Assembly (NCBI GenBank): GCA_964016885.1
Contig: OZ024758.1
Coordinates: 5,084,001-5,148,000, forward strand
DNA: 64,000 nt
Source of the DNA: Eledone cirrhosa
Taxonomy: Eukaryota
Direction: 5' to 3'
Shown: positions 1-60,714 of the stretch, one piece after another
How the letters are laid out: the number at the start of each line of letters is the position of its first letter
Numbering within the stretch: position 1 is the stretch's first letter
Position numbers and translations under genes: made by a program
The notes under the pieces: model-generated
The model's database searches: none
What the model was told of the DNA's origin: nothing
What the model saw: only the letters and a program-made list of their open reading frames with translations

Positions 1-253
1 ATTCAGAAGCTGGATCAAAGGTCTTCCTTCTATCCATTCTGTTAATTTCCAATTTAGAATTATTTCCCTATTCAAGGTTTTTTTTCATAGGCATGTGTTT
101 CTATATCTACTACTACTACTACACTATCCCGACACCCCGTTGCCAAGCGGTTTAGCCTTGTGTTCAGAAAGCCTGTCGTTATTCCCACCATGCATCTCGT
201 CATTCATTGAGTACTCCCTTTGTGGTCAATTCGTCTCAAGTACTTTTAATTTG

Positions 254-400
254 CCAGTTGCAGACTGTGCATCAATATCAGATATTTTTCTCCACAAAGT
301 TGGGTCACCAACAGCAGAGTTTAAAGAGCAAAGATCAAGTCCAGTCCATAGGCTGACATTATCAAGCCATTGTTTTGGCTGCCGGCTTCTATCAGCTACA
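254..400 (-). mobile_element. RTE-type LINE 3' fragment (same family as 5895-6655 and 53718-54300)
   Basis: Near-identical to other copies in the window; the minus strand encodes RRQPKQWLDNVSLWTGLDLCSLNSA-like RTE C-terminal residues. Confidence 0.7.
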
Positions 401-1067
401 TGTGATCAAAAACAATCCACATCACCTTAGAAAGAAGAAAATATTTATACATAACTTTGGCATATGTCAGGTATTGTGAGAGAAATGTGTAACCGATATA
501 ATTAAATCATTCGTTTACTTTTACTTGTTTCATAATACTCCAGGTGAGGATTAAATACAATTGAAAGTCAACTGCGGTGAGATAAAACGAAAAGATGCAG
601 AGAAAATTCATGTAACGTTCTTCCAGTATGAAGATAATTGGTATGAAAATATTGACAAAACATAACATGAAAAAATTAATAGGACATAAACGCAAGATCA
701 TTTTTTAAATATATTTTTAGTTATAAAAATGAAGTGTTTGAGTATCCGTTTGTGGGTTTTTTGTAAAGTTGTATATATTTTGTAAAGTAATATAAATAGA
801 GTTGATAGGAGGAAATTAAAATTTACATTATATTCAATAATATATAAACGATGTTGATAAAAAGTATAAACTATCAAATGCAATGAAATATATCCAGCGA
901 AATTAATATCAAATTTGAAAAATTGTTCTTCTCTCAGAGGAACGAGAACCAATGATGTAAGAACGATTAAGTGAAGCCAATGTGTGTTTTATAGATCGCA
1001 GAATTGTGACAAAAATCAACACGGAGCATGATTTGTAAAGTATAAAAATATACATAGTAAGCCTAAA

Positions 1068-1500
1068 TGTATGTTTATGATGTGTTTATGATCTATGTTT
1101 ATGATCTGTGTTTATGATCTATGTTTATGATCTATGTTTATGATCTGTGTTTATGATGTATGTTTATGATCTGTGTTTATGATCTGTGTTTATGATCTGT
1201 GTATATGATCTGTGTTTATGATCTGTGTTTATGATCTGTGTTTATGATCTGTGTTTATGATGTATATTTATGATCTGTGTTTATGATCTATGTTTATGAT
1301 GTATGTTTATGATGTATGTTTATGATCTATGTTTATGATCTGTGTATATGATCTATGTTTATGATCTGTGTTTATGATCTGTGTTTATGATGTATGTTTA
1401 TGATCTGTGTTTATGATGTATATTTATGATGTATATTTATGATCTGTGTTTATGATCTGTGTTTATGATCTGTGTTTATGATCGGTGTTTTTGATCTGTA
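1068..1500. repeat. 13-bp minisatellite (ATCTGTGTTTATG)n
   Basis: About 33 direct copies with minor substitutions. Confidence 0.95.
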
Positions 1501-2051
1501 AACACATATAAGGGTTTCTACTGTTTTGTTATATCAATACCCATTGGTTCCTTTCGGATAACCACTTCATATCTTGTGGGAAGACAAACAAAACCCTTTG
1601 TTAAACATTCCCAACCAACATTCACTATTTCTCAGTCACTTGTCTCAACCTACTCTAATCTCACTGCCTTCTTCTTCTTCTTCTTCTGATGATGATGATC
1701 ATGACCACCGCCGCAACCACCTCCACCACCGCCACTACTACTACTACTACTACCACAACATCACTAACATCGCCGCCATTACTACTACTACTACTACTAC
1801 TACTACTACTACTAACACTACTGCTACTCCCGACCATCACAATAGCTAATTAATCTTCGTGTAGTAATTATTATTAAATGGTAATGGTTATAGAATTATT
1901 GTTCCTATAATTAATACTCCTATACTTAATGCATGAGATAATTATCACTGATGAGGTTTAATTAGGGGAAGATTTAGCTGCCAAGAAGATCGAGAGGGTC
2001 CCTCTTTGGCTCTAGTTATCACCTCTGGTTTTCTTCCACTTATTACTATGA

Positions 2052-2320
2052 AGGCACGTGGCTTAGTGGTTAGAGAGTTAGGTTTGCAATCGTGAGGTTG
2101 TGAGTTCAATTCTTGGACTGGATGATGTGTTGTGTCCTTGAGCAAGACATTTTATTTCACCTTGATCCCTCTGCCAGGAGTTGCGACCAGGTAGATAGTA
2201 TCAGCAATGGAAAGACCAATGGAAACATTGTTTCCTTGGTCCGATTTGACGAGGCCCACCCCACTCGACAAGCGAATGAGGTCTGATCTTGTCTATTGAT
2301 CAGAGCGAGAGCGATTACTG
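2052..2320 (+). mobile_element. tRNA-derived SINE family 2 (CORE-like central segment)
   Basis: A-box TGGCTTAGTGG, B-box-like GAGTTCAATTC, then TGTGTCCTTGAGCAAGACA; homologous to 15446-15650 and 45340-45450. Confidence 0.75.
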
Positions 2321-2519
2321 TGCAAATGTTTGTATTGTTATTGTTGTTACTGTTATCGATATTACTGTCATTTCTGTATTTCTATTGATTGTATTCTTGC
2401 TGAAACGAGTCACGTGGCCTTATGGTAAGAGTGTTGGACTTACGATCATAATGACGTGGGTTCGATTTCTGGGCTGGGTTGTGTGTTGTCTTCTTCTTCT
2501 TCTCTGATGATGATGTCGA

Positions 2520-58200: not shown

Positions 58201-58269
58201 CACATACACTTTCATAATACACTGAAATATAATCACACTAATGTAAATGCTGAATGTGCGTCTCAATAT

Positions 58270-59335
58270 ATACACACACACAGACACACACACAGACACA
58301 CACAGACAGACACAGACAGACACACAGACAGACACAGACAAACACACAGACAGACACAGACAAACACACACACAGACACACAGACAGACACAGAGAGACA
58401 GGGAAACAGAGACAGAGAAACAGACACAGACAGAGAAACAGAGACAGAGACACAGAGACAGAGACACAGAGACACAGACACAGAGACAGACACAGAGACA
58501 GACACAGAGACAGACACAGAGACAGACACAGAGACAGACACAGAGACAGACACAGAGACAGACACAGAGACAGACACAGAGACAGACACACAGAGACAGA
58601 CACACAGAGACAGACACACAGAGACAGACACACAGAGACAGACACACAGAGACAGACACACAGAGACAGAGACACAGAGACAGAGACACAGAGACAGAGA
58701 CAGAGACACAGAGACACAGAGACAGAGACACAGAGACAGAGACACAGAGACGGAGACACAGAGACGGAGACACAGAGACACAGAGACACAGAGACACAGA
58801 GACAGAGACACAGAGACACAGAGACAGAGACACAGAGACACAGAGACACAGAGACAGAGAGACAGAGACACAGAGACAGAGAGACAGAGACACAGAGACA
58901 CAGAGAGACAGAGAGACACAGAGACAGAGACACAGAGACAGAGACACAGACACAGAGACAGAGACACAGACACAGAGACAGAGACACAGAGACACAGAGA
59001 CACAGATACACAGATACACAGAGACACAGAGACACAGAGACACACAGAGACACACAGAGACACACAGAGACACACAGAGACACAGATACACAGAGACACA
59101 GAGACACAGAGACATACACAGAGACACAGAGACATACACAGAGACATACACAGAGACATACACAGAGACATACACAGAGACATACACAGAGACATACACA
59201 GAGACATACACAGAGACATACACAGAGACATACACAGAGACATACACAGAGACATACACAGAGACATACACAGAGACATACACAGAGACATACACAGAGA
59301 CATACACAGAGACATACACCATGACAGAGACAGAT
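58270..59335. repeat. Compound (GACACA/GAGACA)n microsatellite ending in a 12-bp unit CACAGAGACATA
   Basis: Directly visible; it explains all ORFs in 58180-59428. Confidence 0.97.
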
Positions 59336-60000
59336 ACTTGGGTTTATGCTGCATCAATGTCTAAAAGCCTCCTTACTCCGAAATATCGTGAACAAATTCT
59401 TATTAATTATCTAAATAGTGTTATCTAAATAGTAATTCTAATTCCAAATGCCATGGAAGAATTATTAATAATTTGAAGTCAGTTTTCCAGTGTCTCTCAT
59501 TGGAATTATATGTTTGGCTTCACTTTGGAAATAAATAAATAAATAATTTATGGTCAACTCGTCAAACTGTTGATTGCATGTAATTATCCATTTCAGCGAA
59601 AACCTATGGTTTTGAAATGCTAATAAAGTTTATTTTGGTACCACGAAGAAAAAACATATTTATAACAACTGACTAGCGATATGTTGTATATTGTTTTTTG
59701 TGTGTTTTTGTTTGTTTTTTGTTGTTTTTTTCTTTTAATATTATTGTTATTCCAGTTAAATAACTACAGATATGAATATTAATTTGAGATTACCTAAAGT
59801 CATATTACATCTGCTTCAATGAAGAAGTATTTCTAAAGATGAATATAATCTAATTTGGAAAGCAATAATGGTGTGGACAGTTCCTTCTATATAATATGTG
59901 ATATAAAACATGTCGATATATAACGTGAGACAGCAATGTATGAAGAACCTGCTTGGATGGAATATATATATATATATATATAGAGAGAGAGAGAGAGATA

Positions 60001-60163
60001 AAACGAAGGAAGTGTGGTAAGGAACCAGGTGGATCATAACGCACCAGAGTACTCGATACTTTGGGTTCAGCCAGACTACTGCTGTGCTAACAATACTGCG
60101 TGAGTTCAAAACTAGATGTCGAAACGGCCGGAGCTCAGCCGTCGGGGTCCTCACTCTTTTCCT
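60001..60163. mobile_element. Family A element with oppositely oriented halves
   Basis: Tail on the minus strand joined to a + strand arm GTCGAAACGGCCGGAGCTCAGCCGTC; followed by (TA)n. Confidence 0.65.
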
Positions 60164-60204
60164 ATATATATATATATATATATATATATATATATATATA
60201 TATA

Positions 60205-60537
60205 TACGATATTAAATAAATGGAAACTATATTTATAAAACCATATCTATTTCATTATATATATTTCAGGGATATCATATTAACAATATGTTATGCCTTC
60301 CTCAGACAAAATACAATATAGACAGTTTTATAAATAAATAGATTTGACATACCGTTCAACATAACATATTGTTAATATGATATCCCTGAAATATATATAA
60401 TGAAATAGATATGGTTTTATAAATATAGTTTCCATTTATTTAATATCGTAAATATACTCCAAATACTTGTTGAGTGCTTTTATATCAGTTATAAATATTT
60501 ACTAGTTGTAACCCAACAATTTAAATATAACTTTCCA
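60205..60537 (+). mobile_element. Fold-back element in (TA)n with GTTGAGTGCT tail
   Basis: About 91-bp perfect inverted arms (60205-60295 / 60360-60450). Confidence 0.7.
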
Positions 60538-60714
60538 TATATATATATATATATATATATAAATTTTGAGTATATGTTGGTTGTTTACCGACACCTCACA
60601 ATGCAGATTGGAGCACTCGACGAAGTACGCAGGTTGGTTTGGTTACTCCGGAGTAATATAAAATAAAATAAGTAAGTCAAATATTTAAAATTTGGCTTCG
60701 TTTATTAAAGGTGT

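Follow-up and report, generated by a model that had tools for sequence, protein, structure and literature searches.

The window analysed here, 64,000 nucleotides of Eledone cirrhosa DNA (contig OZ024758.1, positions 5,084,001 to 5,148,000), carries hammerheads (HHRs), hairpins and head-to-head insertions of several families (Table 1), the insertion target being (TA)n. Judged by sequence, these families belong, as divergent members, to the Hydra clade of Penelope-like elements (PLEs), described among the C-terminal EN+ PLEs in the part of Craig et al. 2021 (PMC8557442) devoted to it. A sequence-only reading of the window had taken the families to be otherwise unrelated, which is not so, as they encode homologous Hydra-type proteins. 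The Hydra clade is highly diversified and abundant in this genome.

P0001 (710 aa) is a single ORF with RT plus an EN of GIY-YIG type at the C-terminus, and intact ORFs are present in L266 (717/719 aa) and L277; the EN is assigned by its likeness to Hydra proteins, and a Pfam scan of P0001 returned nothing significant. RWK and DKT are both carried by P0001 and by 92/123 and 116/123 aligned relatives, respectively, with RWR or RWT in place of RWK in families A and F4. The CxCX5C linker is found in all 123, and CxxC (121/123) and CxH (120/123) lie around the E and N of the EN. A CX2-5CxxC before the EN occurs in 0/123 and an N-terminal CxC in 1/123, and the EN lacks CCHH, no two cysteines lying between the VVY and YVG/YIG strands (alignment A1, by eye). 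GxKF/Y was matched in 40/123 by a position-blind search, the P0001 match being C-terminal to the RT, not N-terminal. One back-translated RT pattern gave 0 matches. The ten best PDB matches of the predicted P0001 fold are all telomerase RTs. The leader/pLTR contains a canonical hammerhead, with a deviant core in family A. A Naiad/Chlamys PLE (N-terminal EN, CxC, DKA, no canonical HHR) is ruled out by the C-terminal EN, the DKT and the HHR.

Table 1. Hairpins, hammerheads and insertions in the window (H1 and H2, first and second hairpin of a leader)
Feature	Position	Strand	Remarks
Family A head-to-head insertion in (TA)n	6896..7086		minus arm tailed (H2-type end 6896), plus arm tail-less (H1-type end 7086)
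H1, family A	6942..6968	-	4-bp lower stem, UU bulge, 5-bp upper stem, ACT
Family A head-to-head insertion	7420..7609		H1 at 7466-7492 (-)
Family A head-to-head insertion	8061..8267		H1 at 8107-8133 (-)
H1, family A	10918..10944	-	missed earlier
H1, family A	23467..23493	+	missed earlier
H1 3' strand, family A	60048..60057	-	unrelated sequence in place of 5' strand
Hairpin 3' strand, family D	206..215	+	5' strand decayed; no (TA)n behind, unrelated repeat next
Hairpin, family D (4+5 bp)	5812..5840	+	no (TA)n behind
Hairpin, family D	32242..32270	-	one lower-stem mismatch; end 37-45 nt behind
Hairpin variant, UA bulge	5644..5666	+	not cited earlier; end 41 nt behind
Family-B-like tail motif	7142..7170	-	lower stem only; upper stem unformed
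Hammerhead and tail-less end	7297..7385	+	probably inverted partner arm of 7142 motif; L270-leader likeness by eye
H1 of P0001 group	8914..8937	-	not cited earlier; G-C base pair, UA bulge
Hairpin, family F1	13219..13240	+	ends ACC
H1, family C/E (4+6 bp)	22591..22618	-	downstream of same-strand hammerhead 22680-22760
Hammerhead	22680..22760	-	upstream of 22591 hairpin
3' strand only, family C13	24131..24140	+	GAGCCCT variant; inverted arm joined inside hairpin
Hairpin variant, 4+5 bp	28977..29012	+	G-C base pair; trailing TAA replaces RCT
Hammerhead core	32997..33026	+	upstream of 33057 hairpin
H1, family C13	33057..33106	+	long upper domain; read-through copies have H2 6 nt behind end and Hydra ORF
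Hairpin, 4+4 bp	42167..42193	+	G-C base pair; end 70 nt behind
H1, family B	45500..45552	-	long upper domain
Hammerhead of tail-less inverted arm	60256..60305	-	partner of 60456 hairpin arm
H1, family F2	60456..60478	+	C-G first upper pair; read-through copies have GC(TC) start ~8 nt behind end
H1, family F6, 4+6 bp	60612..60654	-	C-G first upper pair
Hammerhead	60720..60764	-	upstream of 60612 hairpin, same strand

The motif and its hairpin

The 13 tail 10-mers cited in the sequence-only reading are all present at their positions, minus-strand sites being given by the low coordinate. Its consensus ATYGAGYRCT fits exactly at eight of these, the other five deviating, and five more exact sites had been missed (7475, 8116, 10927 and 60057, minus; 23484, plus). 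A microsatellite lies 35-70 nt behind the motif at 11 sites, but none is found within 190 nt at 206 and 5831; upstream RCTCY accompanies nine (in two of them as CTCC instead of CTCT), and 206, 7151 (minus), 13231 and 32251 (minus) lack it or have it in mutated form. The association is well above background: the motif followed at 35-60 nt by (TA)6 has 36,261 plus-strand matches genome-wide versus 191 for the reversed control, counted on the strand that, by our reading, takes each site once. In 1.414 Mb of genome blocks together with the window, (TA)4 lies 30-80 nt downstream of 66/86 exact motifs and upstream of 6/86; four scrambled controls of the relaxed motif had (TA)4 downstream in 3/47, 0/412, 3/173 and 2/35. 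The supposed constant placement on the HHR-sense strand is true within a single arm; the HHR closest to a motif, however, often sits on the other strand (7297 plus for motif 7151 minus; 60305 minus for 60469 plus) because it belongs to the inverted partner arm.

The motif was not seen in clusters holding 38/100 HHR calls, and some (TA)n HHR families lack it. These motif-less clusters, together with a non-Hydra PLE devoid of the hairpin, rule out the motif as a mark of all (TA)n-targeting PLEs. A coding origin is likewise rejected, because the motif sits in the leader, upstream of the ATG. Twelve motif variants run against the Naiad/Chlamys/Hydra supplement, in which line breaks can hide matches, gave five non-Hydra matches, all in coding-looking sequence.

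Rather than a linear word, the motif is the 3' strand of a hairpin with a bulge. The two halves of the noted pattern, CTCTR and ATYGAGYRCT, make up opposite strands of a single structure, RCTC-stem-loop-stem-[UH]-GAGY-RCY, which shows compensatory changes and in which the distance between strands spans 16-75 nt. The upstream 5-mer predicted by pairing is present in 20/42 clusters, as against 9/126 for non-predicted 5-mers (Fisher p=3e-8), cluster F3 being left out as a hairpin with a one-base bulge read in antisense. In a set of 29 hairpins (excluding the L274 H1 and five close-relative references) the base pair is Watson-Crick in 26, with 3 G-U, and the first upper pair is Watson-Crick in 25 (9 U-A, 16 C-G). 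The second is Watson-Crick in 22, with all four pair types, for a shuffle mean of 7.9 and 0/20,000 shuffles reaching 22; the third (12/29, P=0.04) and fourth (10/29, P=0.27) fall away, upper stems of H2 often being weak, and all shuffle P values overstate because the families are related. H2 copies were picked by a pattern that fixes RCTCC. Free MFE folding frequently failed to give the hairpin or put it elsewhere, so that five H1 anchors had to be set manually; the one match to a pattern for long H2 interiors was judged to be chance. In two families a pseudoknot behind the motif seemed possible, with no common pattern. Rfam gave 0 gathering hits in the window; at seven loci there were 26 hits with E<=1, none of them to a hairpin family that is plausible (miRNA models resembling microsatellites, a hammerhead and a weak snoRNA).

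Were the motif to act as DNA, as a possibly extruded site for the GIY-YIG endonuclease at resolution of a transposition intermediate, the near palindrome GAGYRCT would suit it, as would the reported need for the D. virilis Penelope tail in endonuclease recognition (cited in the relevant lines of Frangieh et al. 2024, PMC11167929) and the attribution of the tail to EN-mediated resolution in the corresponding passage of PMC8557442. Compensatory changes, G-U pairs and a one-sided bulge over 16-75 nt spacers fit a single-stranded fold and not a duplex, however, and the targets are plain (TA)n without the motif, which makes a DNA site quite improbable.

Twin hairpins and insertion ends

In the complete leader the order is hammerhead, H1, H2, ATG, an arrangement found upstream of P0001-homologous ORFs in families A, F4, F6, B, E, F19, C13 and P1-P3. 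Genome-wide, H1..H2 pairs gave paired counts of 581 and 694 in one search (control 123 and 0) and of 534 and 542 in a second (control 0 and 0). Three of six metagenome loci lack the leader, and the three that have it share the layout, L289 ending 6 nt before H2 in (TA)n; the layout also recurs in published coral, sea-cucumber and copepod consensuses. Related loci were found neither in viral contigs nor in prokaryote genomes, no GAG-RCT strand is seen in the published leader or end of Hydra-1_Obim, and in family F1 (13231) and family D (206/5831/32251) the search for read-through copies containing H2 found none. A non-Hydra PLE of the same genome, also targeting (TA)n, has two ends ~41 nt apart and no hairpin, so the hairpin is not a general PLE requirement.

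Sampled insertion ends lie just 5' of H1 or H2 in 153/157 cases (modes 8 and 6 nt): 67 are 5' of H1, 86 are 5' of H2 (60 at exactly 6 nt), four are elsewhere and none is 3' of the H2 start. UA stands at -6 of H2 in 14/17 references. The H1-type end is less sharp outside family A (23/33 at 5-10 nt), with scatter from -2 to 18 in C13, P1 and P2. Two windows of 4-10 nt hold 132/157 ends, where 19.7 would be expected if any leader TA were used. This restriction to TAs 4-10 nt before a hairpin speaks against the hairpins serving expression (promoter, translation start, RNA stability) while neighbouring UA-rich sequence alone sets the ends, as do an H1-H2 distance that varies (67-101 nt) while that from end to hairpin is constant, and the retention of both hairpins in the non-coding 1.3-kb F22 tandem (L267). 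They are also kept in the non-coding 257-bp family A repeat (L243). A role in expression, compatible with H2 lying 13-62 nt before the start codon in ORF-bearing leaders and with the pLTR promoter proposed for PLEs in the section of Arkhipova et al. 2013 (PMC3846280) on that point, thus has little probability.

Uninterrupted inverted pairs have one end of each class in 42/44 cases (~49% expected), and between the two arms of an insertion the median difference is 2.5/45 nt, versus 8 from one insertion to another; 70/157 ends lie outside any recognised pair. The PLE 'tail' therefore consists of H1 and of the spacer between H1 and H2. It is H2, itself not copied and ~6 nt beyond, that sets the end found 30-70 nt behind the motif, and H1 marks the end of the other, tail-less arm. 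The motif's presumed part as a cis-signal for 3'-end definition is well supported by position, but not for the tail copy, since H1 does not define the end that follows it.

The same end positions, and the lack of any end 3' of H2, would be predicted if the hairpins directed RNA 3'-end formation (cleavage or termination) just upstream and the RT started at two pre-made RNA ends, and RNA-seq read ends at the same sites are also present in PMC11167929. The mixed-class pairs would then be unexplained unless two different RNAs were always co-recruited, a cut at H1 would part the leader from the ORF, and the PLE tested in PMC11167929 initiates internally, so pre-made ends are rather unlikely. Inverted pairs might instead arise by self-priming or fold-back on an antisense template, with the motif an inherited relic without role. 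Self-priming was put forward for palindromic junctions in the pLTR discussion of PMC3846280, and family A junctions are palindromic, at hammerhead stem II. Fold-back would not, however, be expected to place the end at a constant distance from a downstream hairpin that is not copied, and pairing is kept by double changes in animals of several phyla, though flanking sequence fails to align between families, as had been said of the tails; already disfavoured, this origin is hardly credible.

Proposed start-site selection

Since copies end 6-8 bases before H1 or H2, the pair of hairpins likely marks for the RT where copying starts, on each side of the cut DNA. We consider it probable that the hairpin carried twice between hammerhead and ATG, with ends 6-8 nt 5', provides binding sites that place the RT at two start points. 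What is observed is a hairpin that covaries and is present twice, two classes of end with one of each per pair, and the linked Hydra-type ORFs; position and covariation argue for the putative RT recognition, and strand cutting, UA pairing and priming are set out conditionally. The protein would cut both strands of the (TA)n target, and each target 3' end would pair with the UA ~6 nt 5' of a hairpin and prime cDNA towards the RNA 5' end, one start site serving each target strand. The H2-started cDNA would copy H1 and the spacer, the H1-started cDNA neither, and the two truncated cDNAs would be joined head to head. The leader of uncleaved RNA would be the source of short inserts, while ORF-bearing copies would need tandem or read-through RNA. 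The simplest reading is a two-protomer complex with one putative protomer per hairpin. More tentatively, at somewhat under even confidence, the twin hairpin could serve as a molecular ruler: one RNA would have a telomerase-like RT protomer on H1 and another on H2, and these would prime from both strands of one (TA)n cut, each 6-8 nt upstream of its hairpin; one rule would then yield the tail, the head-to-head inserts and a portable start signal.

How the one-sided PLE tail and the inverted double insertions come about has been an open question for some twenty years; mechanistic work on it is called for in PMC8557442, and PMC11167929 found two start sites but no RNA signal that defines them. 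A covarying hairpin at fixed distance from each end gives exact, cheap predictions, and a rule by which tens of thousands of unclassified MITE-like repeats in the Eledone cirrhosa genome can be oriented, assigned to a clade and given their true ends. Among mobile elements, PLE RTs are the nearest relatives of telomerase, and the RNA element they bind therefore bears on how RTs fix the template start. If true, the ruler would give two-ended DNA writing a 'start copying here' signal that is both portable and programmable.

Comparison with known systems

Telomerase RNA elements are bound by TERT beside the template, and stem-loops in non-LTR 3' UTRs are bound by the RT. By analogy, the putative RT-bound stem would likewise lie near the copied region; unlike in telomerase RNA the hairpin is 3' of the start site and occurs twice, in the 5' leader/pLTR, and there is no sequence or Rfam match. 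No published description of twin hairpins was found, in a search short of paper figures and of Arkhipova 2006, Pyatkov 2004 and the Repbase reports, which may bear on novelty.

In vitro, the RT of Poseidon PAc of Anolis starts at two internal tail-delimiting sites, cutting and extension take place on both target strands, the reaction needs RNA 3' of the start sites and uncleaved RNA is the main template (PMC11167929). PAc differs in belonging to another clade and in having its start sites inside the ORF, in an AC-rich stem-loop, with a repeated binding motif not defined there. The Hydra-clade elements as portrayed in the relevant part of PMC8557442 share the single ORF of ~710 aa with RWK, DKT, YRDD, CxCX5C and, at the C-terminus, an EN of GIY-YIG type with CxxC and CxH, a hammerhead close to the 3' end, the (TA)n targets, and the occurrence of partial tandems and of truncated copies in inverted orientation. 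That part has no conserved hairpin, twin arrangement or end rule, and gives a tail of 30-40 nt versus ~65-100 nt here.

Animal non-LTR retrozymes, in the passages of PMC7229834 and bioRxiv 10.64898/2026.07.22.740005 that describe them, are also non-coding tandem repeats derived from PLE pLTRs; most copies here are in contrast dispersed two-armed insertions, and those passages name no RT recognition signal. The inverted pLTR, as presented in the pLTR discussion of PMC3846280, shares with our insertions the head-to-head truncated copies, the tail on one side and the palindromic junctions. It is explained there by self-priming, possibly on antisense RNA, whereas the ends seen here map to two sense-strand copies of one hairpin.

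Results

The motif ATYGAGYRCT is one half of a hairpin, and the upstream CTCTR is its pairing partner. RCTC pairs with GAGY in a lower stem, a two-base bulge (U plus U, C or A) follows on the 3' side, an upper stem of free length stands above it, and an unpaired RCY trails the hairpin. In 42 clusters picked solely by the 3' half and closeness to a microsatellite, one antisense cluster being left out, the pairing-predicted 5-mer lies upstream in 20, against 9/126 for non-predicted 5-mers (Fisher p=3e-8). In 29 hairpins, comprising 11 first (H1) and 12 second (H2) leader hairpins from the Eledone cirrhosa genome and six of metagenome origin, the base pair is G-C (18), A-U (8) or G-U (3), the first upper pair C-G (16), U-A (9) or mismatched (4), and the second Watson-Crick in 22, every one of the four types among them, a number reached in 0/20,000 shuffles (mean 7.9), all counts coming from related families with RCTCC fixed in H2 selection and five H1 anchors set by hand. 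The third pair (12 Watson-Crick, 5 G-U) and fourth (10 Watson-Crick) are weak. The H2 interior is a branched domain of ~65 nt in the P1-P3 family group and 8-14 nt in other families, so that the upper part can vary freely. Variants replace RCY with a trailing TAA, TAT, TTA or CCT, or, in the B051 family, have a one-base bulge; no Rfam family matches the hairpins of the window and seven loci.

All 13 10-mers cited by the sequence-only reading are located in the window. Its consensus is exact at eight and inexact at five, with five further exact sites overlooked, and its placing near element ends stands for 11, which lie 35-70 nt ahead of a microsatellite, but not for 206 and 5831, which have none within 190 nt. 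Across the 3.0-Gb animal genome (window on contig G000:C19) the motif followed at 35-60 nt by (TA)6 occurs 36,261 times on the plus strand, and its reversed control 191 times on the singly counted strand; in the two remaining counts, 207,050 and 1,049, the same site is entered once per run length. In a sample drawn against single-family bias (27 50-kb blocks and the window, together 1.414 Mb), (TA)4 lies at 30-80 nt downstream of 66/86 exact motifs and upstream of 6/86; scrambling the relaxed motif in four ways as a control gave 3/47, 0/412, 3/173 and 2/35. That the motif is instead a DNA signal read by the endonuclease seems improbable to us. The 100 hammerhead calls form 21 clusters: 50 calls are in strict-motif clusters and 12 in clusters assigned to hairpin families or variants, and clusters holding 38 have neither strict motif nor hairpin variant.

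Full-length copies carry, in order, hammerhead, H1, spacer, H2 and ATG. A generic H1..H2 pattern gives 581/694 matches genome-wide (control 123/0), and one with longer spacers 534/542 (control 0/0). Read-through copies with both hairpins represent six window families (Table); no H2-bearing one was found for F1 or D. In families A, F4, F6, B, E, F19 and C13, all among those with extracted loci, the reading frame starting at the ATG behind H2 encodes a homologue of the protein P0001, with ~25-53% identity per segment. F22 and locus L236 have both hairpins without an ORF. A role of the hairpins in expression is a further reading, to which we give little credence. Family A dominates as the origin of the motif across the genome; the core of its hammerhead is deviant (UUGAGAA where CUGANGA is canonical). 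Two non-coding tandems with both hairpins, of families A and F22, are retrozyme-like non-autonomous forms.

Insertion ends follow a sharp positional rule. Seventeen leader references were aligned to the sample, an end being the switch from match to (TA)n, and 157 ends were kept, four being removed as the reference itself has the same TA run. Sixty-seven lie 5' of H1 (57 at 5-10 nt, mode 8) and 86 lie 5' of H2 (75 at 4-8 nt, of which 60 are exactly 6 nt away); four fall outside both classes, and none of the 157 lies 3' of the H2 start. Excluding family A, 78 ends comprise 33 H1-type, 41 H2-type and four other. Two windows of 4-10 nt hold 132/157 ends, where 19.7 are expected if any leader TA is usable, and UA stands at -6 of H2 in 14/17 references. 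The H1-type end is more scattered in C13, P1 and P2. The motif-to-end distance spreads over 30-70 nt because the H1-H2 distance varies from 67 to 101 nt. Formation of RNA ends at the hairpins is an unlikely alternative account of these positions.

Head-to-head pairs whose arms are not separated by a TA run join one H1 end to one H2 end in 42/44 cases (26/26 in family A, 16/18 in other families), where class frequencies predict ~49% (p=8e-12 when counted more loosely, 44/46); 70/157 ends are outside any recognised pair. Family A arms differ at a median of 2.5/45 positions within one insertion and 8 between insertions, and their junctions vary, a pattern that fits independent synthesis of every insertion from a single template family. 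That the hairpin is a relic, with fold-back priming producing the pairs, is very improbable. Family A junctions, those of the window (Table) and a set of 14, lie clustered at stem II of the hammerhead, and the two arms thereby resemble a 200-bp MITE-like hairpin of variable centre. The one-base-bulge family forms an inverted pair of 2.3 kb that holds remnants of an ORF, one end H1-type and the other bearing the tail (H1 plus spacer).

The families had been read as otherwise unrelated; they are instead assigned, by protein marks and P0001-homologous ORFs, to the Hydra clade of Penelope-like elements (PLEs). An RT-core pattern occurs at 524 places in the genome (control 0), among them P0001, an intact ORF of 710 aa bearing RWK, DKT, CxCX5C and a C-terminal EN with CxxC and CxH, CCHH being absent, which are the clade's marks in Craig et al. 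(PMC8557442). Among 7,997 candidates scored, at least 1,326 are full-length relatives at E<=1e-20; most lie on metagenome or transcriptome contigs of 2.3-3.5 kb, and together they suggest a clade far broader than the 27 families listed in 2021.

The hairpin also occurs outside E. cirrhosa. Three of six metagenome loci contain the leader, all three with hammerhead, H1, H2, ATG and the same covariation; L289 ends in (TA)n 6 nt ahead of H2, and L287 diverges 3 nt ahead of H1 into AT-rich DNA. Of the six Hydra consensuses inspected by eye in the Craig supplement (PMC8557442), Hydra-1_Ajap has both hairpins ahead of ATG, Hydra-2_Ajap and Hydra-2_Amil H1 ~25 nt from the end, Hydra-1_Crog variant forms of both, Hydra-1_Amil a weak hairpin and Hydra-1_Obim, as published, none.

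A non-Hydra PLE of E. cirrhosa (CCHH-type EN, two ends ~41 nt apart) has no RCTC/GAGY hairpin despite its hammerhead and (TA)n target, and may have its own end signal. The abundant hammerhead cluster HC1 (20/100 calls) ends 127 and ~152 nt behind the cleavage site, with neither motif nor ORF found, and a hairpin-free tandem hammerhead repeat, HC5, probably represents a retrozyme belonging to a different clade of PLEs.

Coordinates of elements and side features
Feature	Location	Remark
Family A read-through	window 6942, 7466, 8107	
F6 read-through	window 60612	
B read-through	window 45500	
C/E read-through	window 22591	
C13 read-through	window 33097	
F2 read-through	window 60469	among the matches listed, 80 bases shown of each
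F1 motif	window 13231	
D motif	window 206, 5831, 32251	
Family A junctions	window 6896-7086, 7420-7609, 8061-8267	
Family A coding tandem	L266, G000:C1:91.47-91.48 Mb	3.54-kb units, intact 717/719-aa ORFs; more units listed up to 91.487 Mb
Family A non-coding tandem	L243:1500-1850	257-bp repeat
F22 non-coding tandem	L267	1.3-kb repeat
P1-P3 leaders	L143, L229, L233	
One-base-bulge family	block B051 3713-5617 (L051); window about 60923-61100	
Non-Hydra PLE	block B056 30003-31100 (L058-L059); window about 18900-19110	
Motif-free hammerhead elements	window 7883-7906 (-), 31853-31877 (+)	no motif ahead of (TA)n end; no second copy of the 7906 element in the 1.414-Mb sample
HC1, example	block B046 minus 32693 (L046-L050)	
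HC5	L271 (several copies), block B051	
Another retroelement, presumably RTE-like	window 230-420, 5880-6720	tandem fragments of coding end, minus strand, directly behind family D hairpins

Discussion

Beside the observed conserved structure, its two copies, the end positions, the pairing of arms and the ORF linkage we set a mechanism of hairpin-guided priming at two sites, which as a whole we regard as probable. The PLE protein would bind a hairpin, the nicked (TA)n end would pair with the UA just upstream and then prime, one target strand would be served by H1 and the other by H2, and the resulting cDNAs would join. In a Poseidon PLE (PMC11167929) both target strands are cut and extended, two internal start sites delimit the tail, RNA 3' of these sites is required and the template is uncleaved RNA. 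Family A inserts reach past the predicted cleavage site by ~45 nt on its 5' side; this extension and the deviant core fit an uncleaved leader RNA as template of the many short inserts.

The Hydra clade, hammerheads, (TA)n target, tail and inverted copies were already known. No description of the hairpin or the end rule appears in the accessible portions of the full-text literature, including PMC8557442, PMC11167929, PMC3846280, PMC4209133, PMC7229834 and bioRxiv 10.64898/2026.07.22.740005. The hairpin is a real and conserved RNA element, apparently undescribed, in a retroelement clade already known, and with its sharp positional rule the question of how the PLE tail arises can be tested directly. 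The predicted P0001 model has a pLDDT of 93.6, and its ten best PDB matches are telomerase RTs; the telomerase RNA element bound by TERT would be a possible analogue of the PLE hairpins.
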